A DNA stretch of 64,000 nt from contig CAVTBU010000005.1 in assembly GCA_963733035.1 (NCBI GenBank), positions 2,656,001 to 2,720,000 on the forward strand, written 5' to 3'. Below the pieces are notes generated by a model. That model saw only the letters and a list, made by a program, of their open reading frames with translations, was not told the DNA's origin and did not search any database. This stretch comes from Pirellulales bacterium (GTDB lineage Bacteria > Planctomycetota > Planctomycetia > Pirellulales > PALSA-1355). How positions within the stretch are numbered: the first letter of the stretch is position 1; each line of letters opens with the position of its first letter. Made by a program: the position numbers and the translations under genes. Of this stretch, positions 53,551 to 63,533 are shown piece by piece.

Positions 53551-54882
53551 GTGAACACGCTGAAGCCGCTGTTAACGGTAGCCGTCCTGGCGGGCATCGG
53601 CTATGGAGTTTACATCCGTTTGAACGCCGGTGCCGGTGCGCCACCGCCGCCGGTCGATGCCGGCTGGAATTCGACCCCCGACATTCAACTGCCGGGCCAA
53701 ACGAGCTCCGCCCCCTGGGGCGCGCCTAGTACGCCGGCCACGGGCAATGCAGCAATGGTGCCCGGCGGTCAAGCGCCGCCATATCAGCAGGCACCCAGTG
53801 GAGGAGGCGCGGGGAGCGAAGCGCCGCCGTTTGGCCAACCGGCTCCGACAACTTCGGCGCCACCGTTTGGCGATAGCGCGCGACACGCAAACGCCGAATT
53901 CGCCACCGCCAATACGGCGCCTCCAACCGGCACGCCGGAGGGAGTGTCTTATGAGCCGCCCAGCTACGACGCGATGCCGCAAAACTCGACAGGCACCGAA
54001 ATGTCCACAAGTTCGCGCGGAGCGGACCCGTACGGAAACGATCCGTACCCACCAAGCCAGGGTGCTGACCCGTATGGCGCACCGACCGAGACGTCTCCCC
54101 CGGCCGACTTTTCACCTGGCGAATACCCAGTGCCGCCAGAAGACGGAGTGCCGGTCGATGGTGGCGCGGCCCCAGTAGGAGAGTTCGCCGCAGCCATGCA
54201 AGCTGCCAACAGCGAGCTGGAAAACGGCCAATTGGCGGCGGCCTTGCGTCAGCTTAGCCCTTGGTACGGCAACCCACAGCTCGCTCCGGAACAAGAACGA
54301 CAACTCACGCCCTTGTTGGATCAGGTAGCCGGCACGGTCGTCTACTCGACGCAAAACTTGCTCGAACATCCTTACGAAGTGCAGCCCGGCGAACGACTCG
54401 AGACCATCGGCGAGAAATATCAAGTGCCATGGCAATTGCTGGCGAAGATCAACGGCATCGAAGACCCCAATTCGCTGCAGCCCGGAGAACGGCTGAAGGT
54501 CATCCGCGGACCGTTCCAAGCGGTTATCGATCTGAAGCGCCGTGAGCTCGTGTTGCACACGGCCGACGGACTCTACGCTGGCCGATTTCAAATCGGCATC
54601 GGAGGCGAACATCCGCCGCAGGAAGGAACCTTCGTCGTCAGCGACAAGTCGGTGAACCCCGTGTACTACGGCAGCGAGCGGGCCATTGGCGCCGAAGACC
54701 CCAACAACCCGCTCGGCGAACGCTGGATCGGCCTGGGCAAACAAATGGCCATCCATGGGACCAACAACCCTCAGAACATCGGCCGCACCGACCTGCCCGG
54801 ATGGATCAGCCTTAGCGAACCGGATGTCGAGGACGTGTACGACATTTTGAGCCTCGGCTCGCGAGTTACGATTCGCCGCTAG
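53551..54882 (+). CDS. Membrane-anchored Pro-rich LysM + L,D-transpeptidase (YkuD) domain protein; catalytic Cys replaced by Trp
   Basis: N-terminal TM, Pro/Ala-rich linker, LysM YEVQPGERLETIG...KINGI, YkuD NPLGERWIGL...IHGT...IGRTDLPGWISL; GGAGG SD. Confidence 0.85.
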   Translation: MNTLKPLLTVAVLAGIGYGVYIRLNAGAGAPPPPVDAGWNSTPDIQLPGQTSSAPWGAPSTPATGNAAMVPGGQAPPYQQAPSGGGAGSEAPPFGQPAPTTSAPPFGDSARHANAEFATANTAPPTGTPEGVSYEPPSYDAMPQNSTGTEMSTSSRGADPYGNDPYPPSQGADPYGAPTETSPPADFSPGEYPVPPEDGVPVDGGAAPVGEFAAAMQAANSELENGQLAAALRQLSPWYGNPQLAPEQERQLTPLLDQVAGTVVYSTQNLLEHPYEVQPGERLETIGEKYQVPWQLLAKINGIEDPNSLQPGERLKVIRGPFQAVIDLKRRELVLHTADGLYAGRFQIGIGGEHPPQEGTFVVSDKSVNPVYYGSERAIGAEDPNNPLGERWIGLGKQMAIHGTNNPQNIGRTDLPGWISLSEPDVEDVYDILSLGSRVTIRR

Positions 54883-56028
54883 CGCCGGGCGCGGGGCGAA
54901 AGCATAGATCGCGAATTTGAGTAGGCGGCATTCGATGGGCCCGTTGAACAGCCGGATCCGCGCTCCGGGCTTAAGTCCAATGAACTTCGCGGCCTCCCGA
55001 TTGCCCGCCAGAATCCATGCCGTGTAACCGGCCCAGCGATGCTTGAGCACGTCGCCGATCCGGCGGTGAAACTCGATAATCTCCTCGGTCTTAATTCGTT
55101 CCTCGTAAGGCGGGTTGGTTATCAAAGTCCCATTGGCGGCAGGCGGCGCGGTGTCCGCCAAATCTTGCACTCGCCAAGTGATGTCGGCCGCAACGCCCGC
55201 CCGCTGAGCGTTTTGACGTGCCGCATTGATTAGCTCGGCCTCGCGGTCGGAACCCTCAATGGGAAACGAAAGGCCGGGCAGCTCTTGTCGCCGCGCCTCG
55301 CGCAACACACGATCGTGCAGTGCAGGATCGAAATCGTTCCACCGTTGATAGCCAAAGCGCTCCCGCACGGTTCCTGGGGCAATACGGCGCAAGCATGGCG
55401 GCTTCGATCGGAAACGTGCCCGACCCACACATGAAGTCGACCAGTGCGCTGCGCGGTCCCAACCAGTGAGCCGCAGGATGCCGGCGGCAAGTACTTCGTT
55501 GATCGGCGCCACGCCCGCGGCTTGCCGATATCCGCGCTTGTGGAGCGAATCCCCCGACGCATCGAGATATAGTGTGACGCGTTTGCCATCGATGTGCAGG
55601 TTGATTCGCACGTCGGGATCATCCAGATCGACCGATGGGCGGCTGCCTGTGGCGCGGCGAATCTGATCGACGATCGCGTCCTTTGCCACCTGCGCCGCAT
55701 AGAGCGAATTGGTGAACACGTTGCCACTGGTCACCGGATCGATGGCCAACGTCCCCTCCGGCGCCAGATGCTTGAGCCACTTGGTGCGTCCCACGCGGCG
55801 ATAAAGGGCGTCGGTGCCATCGGCCGGGAAACGGGCGATCGGCTTCAGAATTCGCACAGCCGTGCGGCAACCAATATTCGCCCAATACAGCATCCGCTGG
55901 TCGCCGCGAAAGGAACACATCCTCCGGCCGGACCGCACGTCCTCGGCACCCAGTTCCCGCAACTCATCGGCGAGCACTTCTTCCAAGCCGAAGAACGTCT
56001 TGGCAATCATGGGGAAGGTGTCAGCCAC
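54879..56028 (-). CDS. THUMP-domain RlmL-like RNA methyltransferase; apparent deletions at ~55453, ~55388 and ~54891
   Basis: SLHKRGYR, APINEVLAAG, DFMCGSGTFPIEAA (shifted frame), NPPY, LFNGPIECRL; restoring 1+2+2 nt gives 384 aa ending at a TAG overlapping the convergent gene's stop (CTAG). Confidence 0.82.
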
Positions 56029-56686
56029 GCGCGCCGCCTTCCGTGCACAGCAGCCGCACCAGCTCGGGCAATATCGCATGCATTGCCCGGGCACGATGGC
56101 TAAGAACCGCTTTGGTCACCGCGCTCAACTGCCCAAACGTGCGGTGGTACTCGACCACTTCAAACAAAGGATCGTAGCCAAAGCCCTCGGTGCCAGCTTC
56201 TTCGGTGCGAATGCGACCGTGACATTTCCCGGTCGCTTCGGCTCGCAGCGTGCCCGAGGGATCGGCCAACGCCAACTGACAGACGAAATGGGCCGTGCGG
56301 CGCGGGGGATCAACGTTTGCAAGTTCGGCCAACAGCTTGCGGCGGTTGTCGGCGTCGGTGGCGTTTGGTCCGGCAAAGCGGGCAGAATAGACGCCAGGAG
56401 CGCCCTTCAGGGCGTCGACGACCAACCCACTGTCGTCAGCCAACACCCACTGCTTAAGATGCCTAGCCTGCTGCGTCGCTTTGAGCTCCGCATTTTCACG
56501 GAACGACTGACCAGACTCTTCAATCTCTAGCGGCGAATCGAAATCAGCCAGCGTCTTCAACCGAATGCCGCTCGGCGCGAGCAAATCGGCCAGCTCTCCG
56601 GCCTTCTTGCGATTGCCAGTACCGAACACTAAGACGGGACATTGGGAACCTGTGGTACTCACGCTGCCTATTCTCAGATCGCTCAC
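56021..56686 (-). CDS. rdgB: Non-canonical purine NTP pyrophosphatase (RdgB/HAM1)
   Basis: TGNRKKAGE, ADDSGL, PGVYSARF, GFGYDP, SHRARA. Confidence 0.95.
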   Translation of the reverse strand: MSDLRIGSVSTTGSQCPVLVFGTGNRKKAGELADLLAPSGIRLKTLADFDSPLEIEESGQSFRENAELKATQQARHLKQWVLADDSGLVVDALKGAPGVYSARFAGPNATDADNRRKLLAELANVDPPRRTAHFVCQLALADPSGTLRAEATGKCHGRIRTEEAGTEGFGYDPLFEVVEYHRTFGQLSAVTKAVLSHRARAMHAILPELVRLLCTEGGARG

Positions 56687-59247
56687 TACAGAATCGCCAA
56701 CGGGTTGCGACGCTCTTCGAGCGTGCCCCGCGTAACGCCAACGCGATTGGCCGCTCTGAGCGCGCCATAAACATCCTTGCCACGGATCTCACCAGACAGC
56801 AATTTGCGGTAAAGGTCGATGATGTGGGCAACCTCCGCTTGCGGCTCATCGTTGAGCAGCTCGACCCGGAAGTCGCGCACGCCGCGGCGGAACAACTCGG
56901 GCACCGCTTCGGCCGCGCTTTGCGGTACGGCATTGAAGAGCGTATTGCGACAACCGACATCCGCGGCCAGTGTATGCTCCATACCGACTCGATCGCGCAG
57001 CCGCACCTGGTGCAGGTCGCACGGACGTCCGCAGTTGTGCTTATTCGTACCGGGCGATAGAACCGCGCAGAACACGCAATGTTCCATATGGAACATCGGC
57101 ATGTGCTGGTGAATCACGATTTCCAGCCAGCTGGGTGGCACCGCCGCGACCAGATCGAAGAGTTGATCGCGGTTCAGGTCGTAAGAGGCCGTCACGCGCT
57201 GCACCCCGGCGGTGCGTAAGTAGTCAACCGTCAATTCGTTGGTTGCGTTTAATGAAAAGTCCGCCACGATTGGTATACCGGCCGCCGCATAGAACTGGAG
57301 CCCCGCAAGGTTGCGAACCAGGATTCCGTCAGCCCCATGCCGTGAGATGACGCGCAGAATGCCCATTTCGTCGGGCTTCTGAATGCGGGGCGTGGCGACG
57401 AAGACCGTCGCCTTGGCTGCATGTGCGATAGCCACCGCGTCTCCGTATTGACGTATGTCCTGCAGGTCGGCCATCACGCTCTTGACGCCGCAGGCGAGTA
57501 CCGCGTCGAGTTGGACGAGCGAACGGCAAAGAACATGCAGCGCCGGCGCGCGATCGTCGCCAACATCACCTGACCTGCTTTCCAAAGGTGCGCGCAATCT
57601 ATCCAAGGGCGAGTCCTGAGCAATCCGCCGCTCAGGCGCACGTCCTGCCGACTCATCAAGGCCCGCGACCAATTCATGCCGGAGCTTTCCCAGCACGCTC
57701 AATGGGACCATGGGCGCGCCGACAATTCGAGTGTCGCAAGTCCGCAACTCGTAGTTCGTAGCGCCCAATCGCCCAAACTGTTCGCGAAACAACGCTGGCT
57801 TTGCCGCGTGCTTTCGGGCCGCTTCCAGCGTTTGTGCCGTTTGTACACGGCACGTAGCGCCTGCGTCCGTCCTGGCCTCCACGATCAGCGGAGAACCAAC
57901 CTCTGCGTGAACCAATAGATCGATCGGCACGCGACGCAGCGGCTTGTCGCCTGCAAAGCTCTTGCGCAGGCGGCCGGTGAGCTCCGGGTCGTCAGTCTTC
58001 CAAACTTCCTGGCCGGCGGAGAGCCGCGAAAAATCAATCGCTCCGTGCGCGAAAGTCAACTGCGCTAGCCCGCTACCGATCGGCTCGGTAAGGGAATGGC
58101 GTCCCTGGAAAACCTCGTACACGCGTCCACCTTGTTCGGTGTTCTCGGCTCGACCGCCGGCAAAGACCACGCCATCACCCCGTTTCACCGATCCCGCTAG
58201 TTCAACGGTCACTCGGCGTCCATCGAACTGCCTGACCTGCCCCAGCAACACGCCGCGTTTGGCCGAGCTGGTGGCCGGCACGAGCATCTTGTGGTCGCAG
58301 CCGCGCAGCCAACCGGGCGAAAACCCGCGAGAGAACGATAGTTCCATTTCCTCAATTTCGCGCGGCGTAAACTCCACCGGACGTCCGGCCAGTGTGCTAT
58401 CGATTGCCTGGCGATAGTGCCGCGTGATGTTGGCGACATACTCGGGCGTCTTCAGTCGACCTTCAATCTTGAACGAACAGACGCCCGCCGCGATCAGCTC
58501 TGGAATGAGCGAGTAGGCTGCGAGATCCTGTGGGCTGAGCAAGTAGCGTTGTTCGCCAAGATCCACTTCCTTTTCGTCACAGACCAACTGGTACGGCAAG
58601 CGACAAGCTTGCGCACACTGGCCACGATTGGCGCTTCGTCCTCCCAGCGACTCGCTTGTCAAACATTGTCCCGAGTACGCCACGCACAGCGCGCCGTGAA
58701 CGAAAGCCTCGATCGGCATCGTCGTCTGCCGGCCGATTTCGGCGATCTCCTCCAGCGATAGCTCCCTGGCCAAGACGACTCGCTCGACGCCAAGTTCTTC
58801 GACCGCGCGAATCGTCTCGGCGCTGGTCAGCGTCATCTGTGTTGATGCGTGGATCGGCAGATCAGGGCATACTTGGCGAATGAGCCGCACGAGCCCGAGG
58901 TCTTGCACCAAGACGGCGTCGACACCAGCAGCCGCCACGCGGCGGACAATCTGTTCGATGCTGGCCAATTCATCGGTGAAGACCAACGTGTTGAGCGTGA
59001 CGTAGCCCTTCACCCCTCGGCGATGCAAGAAGGTCATCAGCTCGTCGAGTACCTCGAGCGAGATGTTCGTCGCCCGCGCTCGCGCATTGAACCCCGAGTC
59101 GAGCCCGAAGTAGATTGCATCAGCCCCATTTTCGACCGCCGCGCGTACGCACGTCAGATCGCCGGCCGGAGCCAAAAGCTCGGGGCGCTGTTGCGTCGTG
59201 GACGAGTGGAGAACTGGGGGCATAGCGTGATGTGAGGGGGGATTCAC
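56686..59247 (-). CDS. rlhA: U32 family + DUF3656 protein, RlhA-like 23S rRNA 5-hydroxycytidine synthase
   Basis: ELLAPAG, HASTQ, EAFVHGALCVAYSGQC...NRGQCAQACR Fe-S ligands, KIEGR; long C-terminal extension. Confidence 0.8.
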   Translation of the reverse strand: MNPPSHHAMPPVLHSSTTQQRPELLAPAGDLTCVRAAVENGADAIYFGLDSGFNARARATNISLEVLDELMTFLHRRGVKGYVTLNTLVFTDELASIEQIVRRVAAAGVDAVLVQDLGLVRLIRQVCPDLPIHASTQMTLTSAETIRAVEELGVERVVLARELSLEEIAEIGRQTTMPIEAFVHGALCVAYSGQCLTSESLGGRSANRGQCAQACRLPYQLVCDEKEVDLGEQRYLLSPQDLAAYSLIPELIAAGVCSFKIEGRLKTPEYVANITRHYRQAIDSTLAGRPVEFTPREIEEMELSFSRGFSPGWLRGCDHKMLVPATSSAKRGVLLGQVRQFDGRRVTVELAGSVKRGDGVVFAGGRAENTEQGGRVYEVFQGRHSLTEPIGSGLAQLTFAHGAIDFSRLSAGQEVWKTDDPELTGRLRKSFAGDKPLRRVPIDLLVHAEVGSPLIVEARTDAGATCRVQTAQTLEAARKHAAKPALFREQFGRLGATNYELRTCDTRIVGAPMVPLSVLGKLRHELVAGLDESAGRAPERRIAQDSPLDRLRAPLESRSGDVGDDRAPALHVLCRSLVQLDAVLACGVKSVMADLQDIRQYGDAVAIAHAAKATVFVATPRIQKPDEMGILRVISRHGADGILVRNLAGLQFYAAAGIPIVADFSLNATNELTVDYLRTAGVQRVTASYDLNRDQLFDLVAAVPPSWLEIVIHQHMPMFHMEHCVFCAVLSPGTNKHNCGRPCDLHQVRLRDRVGMEHTLAADVGCRNTLFNAVPQSAAEAVPELFRRGVRDFRVELLNDEPQAEVAHIIDLYRKLLSGEIRGKDVYGALRAANRVGVTRGTLEERRNPLAIL

Positions 59248-59728: not shown

Positions 59729-60151
59729 ATGTGGTACGTCAAACAGGGGCTCAAATGGCTCTTCGCGGTGTTCTTTGTTGCAGCAGGCGTGATGCACTTC
59801 GTGAACGAGGGCTTCTACCTCAAGCTGATGCCCGATTATATCCCTCAGCAACTACACCGGCCCGCGGTGATCGTAAGCGGCATCGCCGAGGTCTTGCTCG
59901 GCGTGTTGTTACTCGTCCCTCGCACCATGCGGCTGGCAGCTTGGGGGCTCATCGCGCTATTGATTGCCGTGTTTCCGGCCAACATCTACGGTTGGCAGCA
60001 TTCCGAGGAGATCTTTGGTGTCAGCAAGTCGGCGCACTTTATTCGGCTGCCGCTGCAAGCTGTGTTGATCGCTTGGGCCTGGTGGTACACGCGACCGGCG
60101 GGAGTACCCGCCAAGCTGCCAACCGATACGGACAATGACACAGACAAATGA
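59729..60151 (+). CDS. DoxX/MauE-family membrane protein
   Basis: AGVMHF...MPDYIP...SGIAE...AVFPANI...RLPLQ. Confidence 0.85.
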   Translation: MWYVKQGLKWLFAVFFVAAGVMHFVNEGFYLKLMPDYIPQQLHRPAVIVSGIAEVLLGVLLLVPRTMRLAAWGLIALLIAVFPANIYGWQHSEEIFGVSKSAHFIRLPLQAVLIAWAWWYTRPAGVPAKLPTDTDNDTDK

Positions 60152-60156
60152 TTGCG

Positions 60157-61584
60157 CTATGCCCCGGGCAACTTGTAATCGCGCCACTCGAGCAACTCCG
60201 CGATGTCGTTCATCGTGATGTCGCGCTTGCTTGCCTCGGGCACGAGCGTTCGGCGTAGAATTGTGGCGAACGGTTCCGGCATGCCCGAGGCGTATTGTTC
60301 TGCGTCCAGCGTGTCAATCTGCCGGAGCACGTCGAGTAGGTTCTCTCCGCGAATGGCTTTTTCGCCCGAGAGCATTTCGTAGAGCATTAGCCCCAGCGAA
60401 AACACGTCGCTCTGCGGCGTTGCCGGTTCGCTGCGGGCTTGTTCGGGCGACATGTAGGCCGGCGTGCCCGAGAGCCCCGCCGGATCGACCGTTTCCCAAG
60501 AGCCAGTCTCCTGAACGGGCGAAGCCGTGGGCCGTCGCTGTGCGAGTCCGAAGTCCATGATCTTGGCCGTGCCATCGGCGGCGACCATGATGTTGGCCGG
60601 TTTCAAATCTCCGTGCACGACCCGCAGCGCCTGCGCGGCACCCATTCCCAGGGCGACTTGTCGGCCCACGCGACTCACCTCGTTGACGGGCAATTTGCCG
60701 GCCGACAGCACGTCCCCCAGCACCTTGCCGTTGATGTGTTCCATCACAATCATCGAAATACCATCGCTCTCGTCGACAGCGTGAATCGTGCAAACATTGG
60801 GATGGTTGATCGCAGCGGCCGCCCGAGCTTCGTCCAAAAACTTGCGCGGCGAGCCGACATGACCGGGTCGAAACACCTTGAGCGCCACGTTGCGTTCGAG
60901 CATCAGGTCGCGAGCCCGATAGACGACCCCGAACGTGCCGCTGCCAATCTCCTCTTCGATGCGATACTGACCGATCACGCTGTTGGGCCTGAGCAACCGC
61001 GTGGGGTCGAGCGTGGGCGTGTCACGGCTCCAACTTTCCGGGCACAGGCCACCCGTCTGTAAACCGTCGAGCACGCGCAACACTTCGTCGCTGCGTCGCC
61101 CAACGCTCAGATTGTGCACAACCTGGTACTGCAAGACCCCATTGGGATCGATGATGAACAGGCCCCGCAGCGCCACATGCTGCCGGGGCACGAGCACGCC
61201 GTAGGCCTGGCAAACCAGCCCACTCTCGTCGCTGGCCAGCGGGAAGGCCAAACCACCCAGGCCGCCCTGACTTCGCGGCGTGGTAATCCATTTCTGATGG
61301 CTGGCCACCGAATCGGTGCTAATGCCCAGGATGTCGCAATCGCGGCGGGCGAACTCGTCAAACTGCACGCTCAGAGCGGTCAATTCCGTGGGACAGACCA
61401 TCGAAAAGTCACGTGGATAGAACAGCAGCACGAGCCAGCGATCGCGGTAATCGTCCAACGACACCTCGCGCTCGGCCGCGTCGGGCCATGCCGTACAGGG
61501 CAGTCGGAAATCCGGCGCCCGCGAGCCGACACTGGCCGGCGCGGCCCTACGACTAACTGCCGAAGGTTTGGAAGGTGATGCCAT
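60157..61584 (-). CDS. Typical 2-Cys peroxiredoxin (AhpC/Prx1) fused to a Hanks-type Ser/Thr protein kinase
   Basis: Prx: FYPRDFSMVCPTE, GGLG, ALRGLFIIDP, VGR, LCPESW. Kinase: GSGTFG, VALK, HGDLKPAN, DFG, GTPAYMSPE, DVFSLG. Confidence 0.92.
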   Translation of the reverse strand: MASPSKPSAVSRRAAPASVGSRAPDFRLPCTAWPDAAEREVSLDDYRDRWLVLLFYPRDFSMVCPTELTALSVQFDEFARRDCDILGISTDSVASHQKWITTPRSQGGLGGLAFPLASDESGLVCQAYGVLVPRQHVALRGLFIIDPNGVLQYQVVHNLSVGRRSDEVLRVLDGLQTGGLCPESWSRDTPTLDPTRLLRPNSVIGQYRIEEEIGSGTFGVVYRARDLMLERNVALKVFRPGHVGSPRKFLDEARAAAAINHPNVCTIHAVDESDGISMIVMEHINGKVLGDVLSAGKLPVNEVSRVGRQVALGMGAAQALRVVHGDLKPANIMVAADGTAKIMDFGLAQRRPTASPVQETGSWETVDPAGLSGTPAYMSPEQARSEPATPQSDVFSLGLMLYEMLSGEKAIRGENLLDVLRQIDTLDAEQYASGMPEPFATILRRTLVPEASKRDITMNDIAELLEWRDYKLPGA

Positions 61585-61627
61585 GATTGCTATTCTAGAG
61601 GTGTCCCTCAGTCGTCGTCCATTCCTG

Positions 61628-62080: not shown

Positions 62081-62183
62081 CCGCATCAAAAACTTGCATT
62101 CGCGCGTTCGGCAGAGTTGAATGGGGCGGTACGGCTTTCCCGCCAATTTGCTCTCCCTGCCTTCCCTGGAGCACACCGCCGTG

Positions 62184-63533
62184 ATGTACGAACCTGCCCC
62201 TTCCAATCGCCGTGAGTTCCTTGTCCGCCTGGCCGGCGGTACCTGTGGCGCAACGCTACTAGCGATCAGTGGCCGCAACGCCTGGGGCGCCGACAACCAT
62301 CAGCCGCTCAAAGTCGCGGCGGTCATGACGGCGTTCCATCACCGCAGCCATGCCCACGTGATCCTCGAAAACTTTCTGGAACCGTACCTCTTCAACGGTC
62401 AGGTTACGCAGCCGGGAATGGAAGTGGCCAGCTTCTACGTCGACCAGTTCCCGCCGAACGACATGTCGCGCGACGTGGCCAGGCAATTTGACATTCCGAT
62501 CTATCCCACGATTGCCGAAGCGGTCTGCCTGGGCGGCGATAAGCTGGCAGTCGACGCCGTCCTGTGTATCGGCGAACACGGTGAGTATCCCGTCAATGCG
62601 AAAGGTCAGCGTGAGTACCCGCGCAAACAGTTTTTCGATCAGGTTGTCGCGGTGTTCAAAAAGAGCGGTCGTTCGGTGCCGGTGTTCAACGACAAGCATC
62701 TTTCTTATCGCTGGGATTGGGCCAAGGAGATGGTCGACACCTCGCGCTCGATGGGCTTTCCGCTGATGGCCGGCAGTTCGGTTCCGCTGGCCCAACGCCG
62801 GCCGCCGCTCGAGCTGCCAAAGGACGCCAAGATCGTCGAGGCCGTCTCCATCCATGGAGGCGGCGTCGAAAGCTACGACTTCCATGCCCTGGAAGTCCTG
62901 CAATCGCAGGTCGAAGCGCGCGCCGGCGGCGAGTCGGGGGTGGCCCAAGTGCAGTTTCTCGAAGGCGACTCGCTCTGGAAAGCCGCCACCGATGGCGTGT
63001 GGTCGCCCGACGTCGCCGCCGCGGCCATGGCGGCGGAGGTCGGTGCTGACGATCCAATGACCAAGTATCTGGCTTCCTCGGGCAAGGAAGTTATCGGAGA
63101 AGCTCCGCCCGTGCATGCGATAGCCGTGCACTATCGCGACGGGCTGCGCGGCCTGGCGCTTAAGGTGGGCAACAGCGGCACGCGCTGGAACTTCGCCGCC
63201 AGGCTTGCCGGTCAGCCTGAGCCAGTGGCGACGGCGTACTACGTCGGCCCCTGGCAAAACCGCAACCTGTTCAAGGCTCTTTCGCACGCGATCCAGACCC
63301 ACTTTCGCGAGAAGAAGGCACCCTATCCCGTCGAGCGGACCCTGCTCACCAGCGGTATCCTCGACGCGGCCATGGATTCGCGCGTCGCGGCGGGGAAACT
63401 GCTCGATACGCCGCAGCTTGACGTCGCCTACGCTCCGCAGGATTTCCGCGCCATGCGCGAGATGGGCGCCAGTTGGAAGATCATTACCGAAGACATGCCC
63501 GAGCCTGAGGGCATCAAACCCGTGGGCGTTTGA
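62184..63533 (+). CDS. Tat-exported hypothetical protein (possibly Gfo/Idh/MocA-like oxidoreductase fold)
   Basis: SNRREFL Tat motif, VDAVLCIGEHG, PVFNDKHLS, LMAGSS, YDFHALE. Confidence 0.7.
   Translation: MYEPAPSNRREFLVRLAGGTCGATLLAISGRNAWGADNHQPLKVAAVMTAFHHRSHAHVILENFLEPYLFNGQVTQPGMEVASFYVDQFPPNDMSRDVARQFDIPIYPTIAEAVCLGGDKLAVDAVLCIGEHGEYPVNAKGQREYPRKQFFDQVVAVFKKSGRSVPVFNDKHLSYRWDWAKEMVDTSRSMGFPLMAGSSVPLAQRRPPLELPKDAKIVEAVSIHGGGVESYDFHALEVLQSQVEARAGGESGVAQVQFLEGDSLWKAATDGVWSPDVAAAAMAAEVGADDPMTKYLASSGKEVIGEAPPVHAIAVHYRDGLRGLALKVGNSGTRWNFAARLAGQPEPVATAYYVGPWQNRNLFKALSHAIQTHFREKKAPYPVERTLLTSGILDAAMDSRVAAGKLLDTPQLDVAYAPQDFRAMREMGASWKIITEDMPEPEGIKPVGV

Follow-up and report, generated by a model that had tools for sequence, protein, structure and literature searches.

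Introduction

How a hydrogen peroxide signal reaches protein kinases despite the fast scavenging of H2O2 by peroxiredoxins (Prx) is an open question in redox biology. According to the leading idea, the Prx itself hands the signal on; proof is hard, the complexes being transient. The Tpx1-Sty1 pair is one such Prx-to-kinase relay. Among bacterial Hanks-type Ser/Thr kinases, PknG is regulated by its rubredoxin domain. In further eukaryotic relays, namely Prdx1-ASK1 (PMC8300624) and Prx-MEKK/p38 (PMC6807362), a 2-Cys Prx is described as the primary H2O2 receptor that signals to a kinase. Mycobacterial PknG is presented as a soluble Hanks kinase with the domain order rubredoxin-kinase-TPR, whose N-terminal domain is Cys-based and linked to redox state (PMC4401782).

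In this work, a gene was analysed in which a Prx and a Hanks-type kinase are joined in a single chain. It is located in a 64,000-nucleotide stretch of DNA (hereinafter the window; positions 2,656,001–2,720,000 of contig CAVTBU010000005.1, assembly GCA_963733035.1) of a Pirellulales bacterium, a soil planctomycete with a 6.6-Mb genome that contains a single copy of the fusion. Judging by their residues, both halves of the encoded protein look like active enzymes that have been kept together. Gating of the kinase by the redox state of the Prx, which would make the fusion a cytoplasmic single-chain peroxide-sensing kinase, has the best support among the explanations considered; whether it takes place is in our estimate an evenly balanced question.

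Organization of the fusion gene

The fusion gene (60157..61584) lies on the minus strand, as do all of its features given below, and encodes 475 aa in one open reading frame (ORF) that starts with ATG, ends with TGA (60157-60159) and contains no internal stops; the plus strand over 60157..61584 is closed by many stops. Two Pfam domains were found in the protein, namely AhpC-TSA (residues 19–153, E 4.9e-37, 127 bits at a cut-off of 26) and Pkinase (residues 207–454, E 2.3e-40, 139 bits at a cut-off of 31.7). In an NCBIfam scan, models for PASTA-kinase, PrxU and AhpC were matched in part, with no match above an equivalog cut-off.

The typical 2-Cys Prx domain with its C-terminal arm occupies residues 17–194 (61003..61536), an assignment supported by the AhpC-TSA match, human Prx2 (5ijt_A) and Foldseek. 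It includes the peroxidatic cysteine (Cp) C64 in PRDFSMVC (61393..61395), a GGLG loop at residues 107–110 (61255..61266), the catalytic Arg R140 in ALRG (61165..61167) and the resolving cysteine (Cr) C181 in GGLCPESW (61042..61044). A linker of fixed length (residues 195–206, TRLLRPNSVIGQ, 60967..61002) connects it with the Hanks-type Ser/Thr kinase domain (residues 207–466, 60187..60966), in which GSGTFG begins at residue 214, VALK includes K236, HGDLKPAN (60592..60615) begins at 324, DFG at 344 and SPE at 379; the DFG motif and the long activation segment up to SPE cover residues 344–381 (60442..60555). The N-terminus is polar and hydrophilic, and no transmembrane (TM) segment was found in the 475 residues, the top 19-aa Kyte-Doolittle window scoring 1.05. 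Thus, the initial annotation, which had described one uninterrupted 475-aa ORF with a complete 2-Cys Prx, an intact Hanks kinase and neither signal peptide nor TM segment, agrees with these results in every motif and residue number, the strand being minus.

The record for the same frame (P0002) is a shorter protein of 433 aa; it starts only at residue 43, so that the opening part of the Prx domain is absent from it, the affected stretch being 61456..61584 on the minus strand. The matches of fusion homologues start between residues 1 and 20.

Conservation and distribution of the fusion

To find out how widespread the architecture is had been advised in the initial annotation, together with a check of the junction for a stop or frameshift. 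Both Pfam domains were found in 120/120 best matches from a large protein database (58–100% identity, 378–514 aa). A library clustered at 50% identity gave 45 further representatives with 39–66% identity to the query, about 40 of which are full-length two-domain proteins and a few are fragments. When a single genome was scanned for each prokaryote species, 80 loci were detected: a match running from the Prx into the kinase was obtained in 70, one was cut by a contig end and nine were stand-alone peroxiredoxins. The frame is open across the junction, and a metagenome contig of 151 nt (record 21 of run X3) matches positions 60905-61055 with 0 differences, reaching from the codon of Cr as far as the glycine loop. 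It is not independent support, since the run may be the assembly's own sample; the metagenome DNA runs gave shares of only 0.07–0.19, mostly short conserved kinase pieces of other organisms, and no RNA run containing the gene was listed. The fusion is therefore not an assembly accident, and it represents a conserved gene family.

The labels of the 71 fusion loci were Planctomycetota (64), 'uncultured bacterium' (4) and Acidobacteriota (3). Pirellulales, Gemmataceae, Isosphaeraceae and Planctomycetaceae are among the Planctomycetota carriers, and cultured carriers include Tautonia sociabilis GM2012, Tautonia sp. JC769, Paludisphaera soli JC670 and Thalassoglobus neptunius KOR42. Mis-binning is possible for two of the three Acidobacteriota loci because their contigs are 2.3 and 5.2 kb long. 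The third (L069), on a 97,970-bp contig labelled Vicinamibacterales, carries a full-length fusion with 47% identity and forms a long branch in the tree; it could be a case of horizontal transfer or of mis-binning.

The catalytic residues of both halves are retained. Among the 120 close homologues, C64 was found in 118 (the other two have gaps), as was the Ser/Thr of the Cp motif, and R140, R163 and C181 were each present in 120/120, as were H324, D326, K328, N331 and D344-F-G of the kinase. The four positions of the GGLG loop were occupied by G, G, L and G in 115, 120, 115 and 116 homologues, respectively. In alignment A1, K236, E252, D326, N331, D344 and E381 are invariant. Of the 45 distant representatives, 38 of the 40 having a residue at the Cp site carry Cp there and 43/43 carry Cr, and the kinase catalytic residues are nearly always kept. 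The preservation of both catalytic sets over about 165 homologues, down to 39% identity, indicates that the architecture is under selection as a unit. A loss of the cysteines in homologues had been named in the initial annotation as a result that would refute a redox sensor; Cp and Cr are nearly universal, and the loss was confined to Cp in two proteins, P0160 and P0163, which are considered below.

The catalytic loop is of the non-RD type, in accordance with the initial annotation, and this is a family trait: G325 of HGD is found in 118/120 close homologues and G in 40/45 distant representatives. It is rare among the other kinases of the window's genome, the loops of which are HRD in 34 cases, HGD in three and HCD in one. 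Non-RD kinases are generally regulated independently of activation-loop phosphorylation, and the HGD loop is consistent with control of some other kind.

Some members of the family have additional parts. P0133 (815 aa) contains a Prx followed by two kinase domains, and several members carry N-terminal extensions without a Pfam match; no function is indicated for either. A search for longer variants gave a single protein, P0391 (1039 aa, from a eukaryote protein collection), with matches to Prx, kinase and Laminin_G_3 families, which may be bacterial contamination.

Inter-domain spacing and predicted structure

The distance between the two halves does not vary. A total of 174 sequences were tested, and all three motifs were located in 137, the remainder being fragments or missed by the patterns; Cr and the first ATP-loop glycine lay exactly 33 residues apart in 137/137. 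The Cp-Cr distance was 117 residues in 133/137. In the window's protein, the kinase N-lobe starts 26 residues after C181. An internal control on 136 sequences gave one distinct length both for the span from Cr to the glycine loop and for that from the glycine loop to the Lys, three from HxD to DFG, four from Cp to Cr, six from VAxK to HxD, 23 from APE to the C-terminus and 24 from DFG to APE (activation loop). The inter-domain span is thus as rigid in length as the intradomain element between the glycine loop and the Lys.

The closest solved relative of residues 16–194 is human Prx2 (5ijt_A, E 1.7e-44), and those of residues ~200–422 are StkP and PknB (E ~1e-34). The AlphaFold (AF2) monomer had a mean predicted local distance difference test score (pLDDT) of 82.4 and a predicted TM-score (pTM) of 0.60, with the least confident regions at the Cr loop (180–184) and the activation loop (351–371; pLDDT <50); a short helix was predicted at 194–197. 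A Foldseek search with this model gave TMt values of 0.79–0.92 to chains of Prx1/2/3 and of 0.81–0.85 to chains of PknB and Stk1, and none of the chains listed by Foldseek spanned both halves (TMq at most 0.48).

Modeling of two copies resulted in an ipSAE of 0.68 (0.68, 0.70 and 0.64 in separate runs) versus 0.00 for the best of three controls, with the runs agreeing in at least 87% of contacts and a partner pLDDT of at least 78. In calibration, the mark for a dimer was reached by 20/30 proteins solved as one-chain pairs and by 1/23 solved as single chains. The predicted interface comprises strand 152–158 paired with itself, residues 62–70 around Cp, the Cr loop (178–185), G107 and the arm and linker (192–197). 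In the model, the pair is the classical antiparallel B-type Prx dimer, in which the Cr arm of one chain lies over the Cp site of its partner. As Prx dimers have already been solved, the score may reflect likeness to known structures. The model is also uninformative on the position of the kinase, since no confident interface residue lies beyond 197.

Origin of the fused peroxiredoxin

The nearest free Prx are those of Chthonomonas and other Armatimonadota, Planifilum and Paludifilum, with 53–60% identity. In 59/72 of the nearest stand-alone Prx, the chain ends 13 residues past Cr. Most likely, therefore, the kinase was added, at about residue 194, to a bacterial Prx that had a short tail, and did not replace a YF helix. 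After TLDP, a 12-residue linker leads into strand beta-1 of the kinase, and no YF helix is present. In the initial annotation, the kinase had been assumed to take the place of the C-terminal YF helix; with free relatives that are short-tailed, the ancestor most likely had no such helix and the assumption has to be abandoned.

Eukaryote-type 'sensitive' 2-Cys Prx are defined by the GGLG and YF motifs. The fused Prx has the first, which aligns with GGLG of human Prx2, and lacks the second. At the same site, the stand-alone relatives (58 readable) have NGIE in 29 cases, NGIA in eight and NGVA in five; GGLG was read once, in what proved to be a fusion fragment. Five single residues also distinguish the family, each being at least 90% conserved in 145 fused sequences and shared by no more than 10% of 65 stand-alone relatives. 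R58 and S61 belong to the Cp loop (FYPRDFS vs FYPLDFT), S160 to the region of the dimer strand and D193 to the arm; the fifth is C83.

A quick maximum-likelihood tree, built from 77 Prx domains, separated the nine stand-alone rows from the fusions by one branch with an SH-aLRT of 99, and a single ancient origin of the fusion is compatible with this tree. Three Prx of about 190 aa without a kinase, P0299 (on a 783-kb contig), P0287 and P0301, read LCREDW at the LCPxxW site and carry a tail that resembles the linker (ALDPFTVVRPG...); truncation or splitting of a fusion may have given rise to them. Short matches with more than 61% identity were considered as true split forms and rejected, because they are fragments or frameshifted pieces of fusions in which the linker is still followed by the beginning of the kinase.

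Genomic context

In the window, the fusion gene is flanked by one convergent and one divergent gene. No conserved partner gene was found beyond the close clade, either by tblastn of the window neighbours against 71 loci or by de novo clustering of the flanking ORFs, whose largest cluster comprised 16 loci. The neighbour most common beside the fusion, a 470-aa protein (62121..63533, plus strand) that has no Pfam match and whose N-terminus (RREFLVRLAGG) is twin-arginine-like, was present in 19/71 loci, all of the close clade. Candidate operon partners were therefore rejected, the neighbours being housekeeping genes or lacking a Pfam match, with nothing common beyond the close clade. The fusion is in this respect a one-component arrangement without a dedicated conserved partner gene, and the absence of conserved neighbours fits a self-contained sensor-output unit.

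The convergent gene (59729..60151, plus strand), ending 6 nt from the fusion stop, encodes a membrane protein of 140 aa that resembles DoxX/MauE (MauE, E 3.2e-09). It adjoins the fusion in 12/71 loci, close kin only. DoxX-type proteins have been linked to thiol stress, so the pairing may not be random. A housekeeping row on the minus strand, which includes a U32 peptidase with DUF3656 (56686..59247), a Ham1-family NTP pyrophosphatase (56021..56686) and a THUMP/RlmL-like methyltransferase (54112..56094), is syntenic in just 6–8 close relatives.

The sole sigma-70-like match in the region (61592..61621, minus strand; TGGACG-18-TAGAAT, 9/12) ends 8 nt before the ATG. This weak candidate, one site against 0.4 +/- 0.8 in shuffles, would imply a nearly leaderless fusion mRNA.

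The genome has a large repertoire of redoxins and kinases, mostly multi-domain: besides the fusion, 38 further Hanks-kinase matches were found, and 46 AhpC-TSA-fold matches were recorded, many of them inside frames of 400–1389 aa.

Proposed mechanism and alternative explanations

The proposed mechanism can be outlined as follows. The N-terminal half is predicted to be a competent typical 2-Cys Prx that forms the usual B-type homodimer. C64 would react with H2O2, and the resulting sulfenic acid would be resolved by C181 of the partner chain with formation of an intersubunit disulfide. Resolution would require local unfolding of the C-terminal arm bearing C181. Since the kinase would hang from this arm by the linker of invariant length, Prx redox state is proposed to be passed to the kinase mechanically. 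The thiol, the disulfide or possibly the hyperoxidised state, or a change between dimer and oligomer, would shift the position, pairing or substrate access of the kinase N-lobe, and the output would be altered phosphorylation of protein substrates.

The fixed linker, the family-specific GGLG and Cp-loop residues and the absence of partner genes make redox gating plausible. Its most specific form is put forward tentatively, with slightly less than even confidence: the fusion would be a natural hard-wired switch in which unfolding of the Cr arm and locking by the disulfide, tuned by GGLG, reposition or pair the kinase and convert H2O2 into Ser/Thr phosphorylation without factors of the OxyR/PerR type.

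Several observations weigh against redox gating. P0160 (Ala) and P0163 (Ser) have lost Cp, so that their Prx cannot sense peroxide; they also lack the catalytic Arg and have kept Cr and an intact kinase, and may be peroxidase-dead variants. The confident inter-chain contacts end at residue 197, the pTM of the AF2 monomer is no higher than the value given above and the kinase is unplaced relative to the Prx dimer. Since no model places the kinase with confidence, the fixed length of the linker is the one argument for a rigid coupling. In the kinase, C265 is conserved in 120/120 close homologues and 40/44 distant ones, but a Cys occupies this site in 31/97 unfused kinases too; as a family-specific acceptor it was therefore rejected, and it lends no special support to a thiol relay onto the kinase. 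Finally, the fusion is patchy in the phylum: at least 5/300 other evenly sampled genomes match at E <= 1e-80, a lower bound, since five candidates per genome were scored.

The best surviving alternative, which we consider rather unlikely, is that the Prx serves as a scaffold, i.e., an obligate dimer or oligomer module with local peroxidase activity, and that the kinase is constitutive or answers to another cue, the two activities not being coupled through redox state. It is in line with the B-type Prx dimer as the sole confident predicted interface, the kinase being unplaced, and with the intact kinases of P0160 and P0163, where Cp is missing. The fused Prx is moreover the only Prx1-type enzyme of the window's genome, where the next match has 31% identity over 143 aa; it might double there as the housekeeping peroxidase, and may be a plain housekeeping 2-Cys Prx. 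However, another carrier (G239) also has a separate Prx (46% identity, 226-aa frame), which argues that the fusion is not simply the housekeeping copy. A mere scaffold could do without both cysteines (Cp and Cr), without the catalytic Arg and without the Ser/Thr, yet they are kept in 95–100% of members. A passive tether should also vary in length, and it is disfavoured by the single length of the span from Cr to the glycine loop in all 137 sequences.

Less probable still is a reversed flow of information, in which the Prx would be a substrate of its own kinase, either in cis or across the dimer, and phosphorylation would switch its peroxidase activity or oligomer state. Such control would amount to a built-in form of the phospho-inactivation of eukaryotic Prx1/Prx2 (the 'floodgate' idea). 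Proximity is guaranteed by the fusion, the GGLG loop is eukaryote-like, and the conserved TP of WITTPRSQGGLG (P103 in at least 90% of A1) aligns with TPRKEGGLG of human Prx2. However, the Thr-Pro stretch also occurs in the stand-alone relatives as TPRE or TPRD and is thus not a fusion-specific site. In addition, the Prx is the only possible input domain of the kinase according to Pfam, so that nothing upstream would trigger the kinase.

That the fusion is a chimera of two neighbouring genes produced by assembly or gene calling can practically be dismissed: the shorter record P0002 (433 aa) would fit it, and against it stand the open junction frame, the two-domain structure of 120/120 best matches, the Prx-into-kinase matches in 70 species genomes and the junction-spanning contig with zero differences.

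Comparison with known systems

The N-terminal half of the fusion resembles 2-Cys Prx of the Prx1/AhpC subfamily (human Prx1, Prx2 and Prx3; PDB 5ijt, 1qmv, 4xcs) in fold, in the PxxxS/TxxC motif, in the catalytic Arg, in the spacing of 117 residues between Cp and Cr and in GGLG. It shares 40–47% identity with solved Prx chains of humans and other eukaryotes, a B-type dimer is predicted as well, and in human Prx2 the residue aligned with C181 is the Cys of VCP. In contrast to these Prx, the fusion has a kinase after the C-terminal arm, no YF helix, a 4-residue deletion before Cr and the family-specific residues R58, S61, C83, S160 and D193. The C-terminal half has all the catalytic subdomain motifs of PknB from M. 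tuberculosis, StkP and Stk1. Unlike these kinases, the fusion is soluble, has neither a TM segment nor PASTA domains and carries the non-RD HGD loop; its putative sensor is an N-terminal cytoplasmic enzyme domain, whereas that of PknB, StkP and Stk1 is extracellular and C-terminal.

Other Prx fusions are the natural Prx-glutaredoxin hybrids and the engineered roGFP2-Prx probes. There the partner receives the oxidising equivalents of the Prx or reports its state; it is a reductant or a reporter and not a signalling enzyme. No account of a Prx-kinase fusion was found in a full-text search of the literature, most subscription journals and supplements being outside its coverage, and the names of the public proteins are generic ('redoxin domain-containing protein', 'protein kinase', 'AhpC/predicted Ser/Thr protein kinase'). 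The fusion is thus apparently undescribed to date, which is in line with the initial annotation, in which no characterised protein of this architecture was known.

A conserved pairing of a complete Prx with a complete kinase offers a stoichiometric, purifiable system for the study of Prx-to-kinase signalling. If redox gating is confirmed, the family would give the eukaryotic Prx-kinase relays a covalent counterpart in prokaryotes and would add a new type of cytoplasmic sensor to the bacterial Hanks kinases, the inputs of most of which are still unassigned, and a first function would be given to one of the many Planctomycetota kinases. If the two activities are independent, the finding reduces to an unusual bifunctional enzyme.

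By analogy, PknG appears to be the nearest counterpart among bacterial kinases and the eukaryotic Prx relays seem the closest in function. PknG differs from the fusion in that its rubredoxin binds metal and is not a peroxidase, in its TPR domain and in that a substrate is known (GarA/OdhI); the two proteins are homologous in the kinase core only. In the eukaryotic relays, the Prx and the kinase are separate and communicate through a transient mixed disulfide, whereas here they form one chain, the signal is possibly conformational, and no family-specific acceptor Cys was found in the fused kinase. Each half of the fusion is an ordinary member of its superfamily. The combination would be a new variation on either theme, namely a Hanks kinase whose cytoplasmic sensor is an enzyme and of a new kind, or a Prx relay with its two partners covalently joined.

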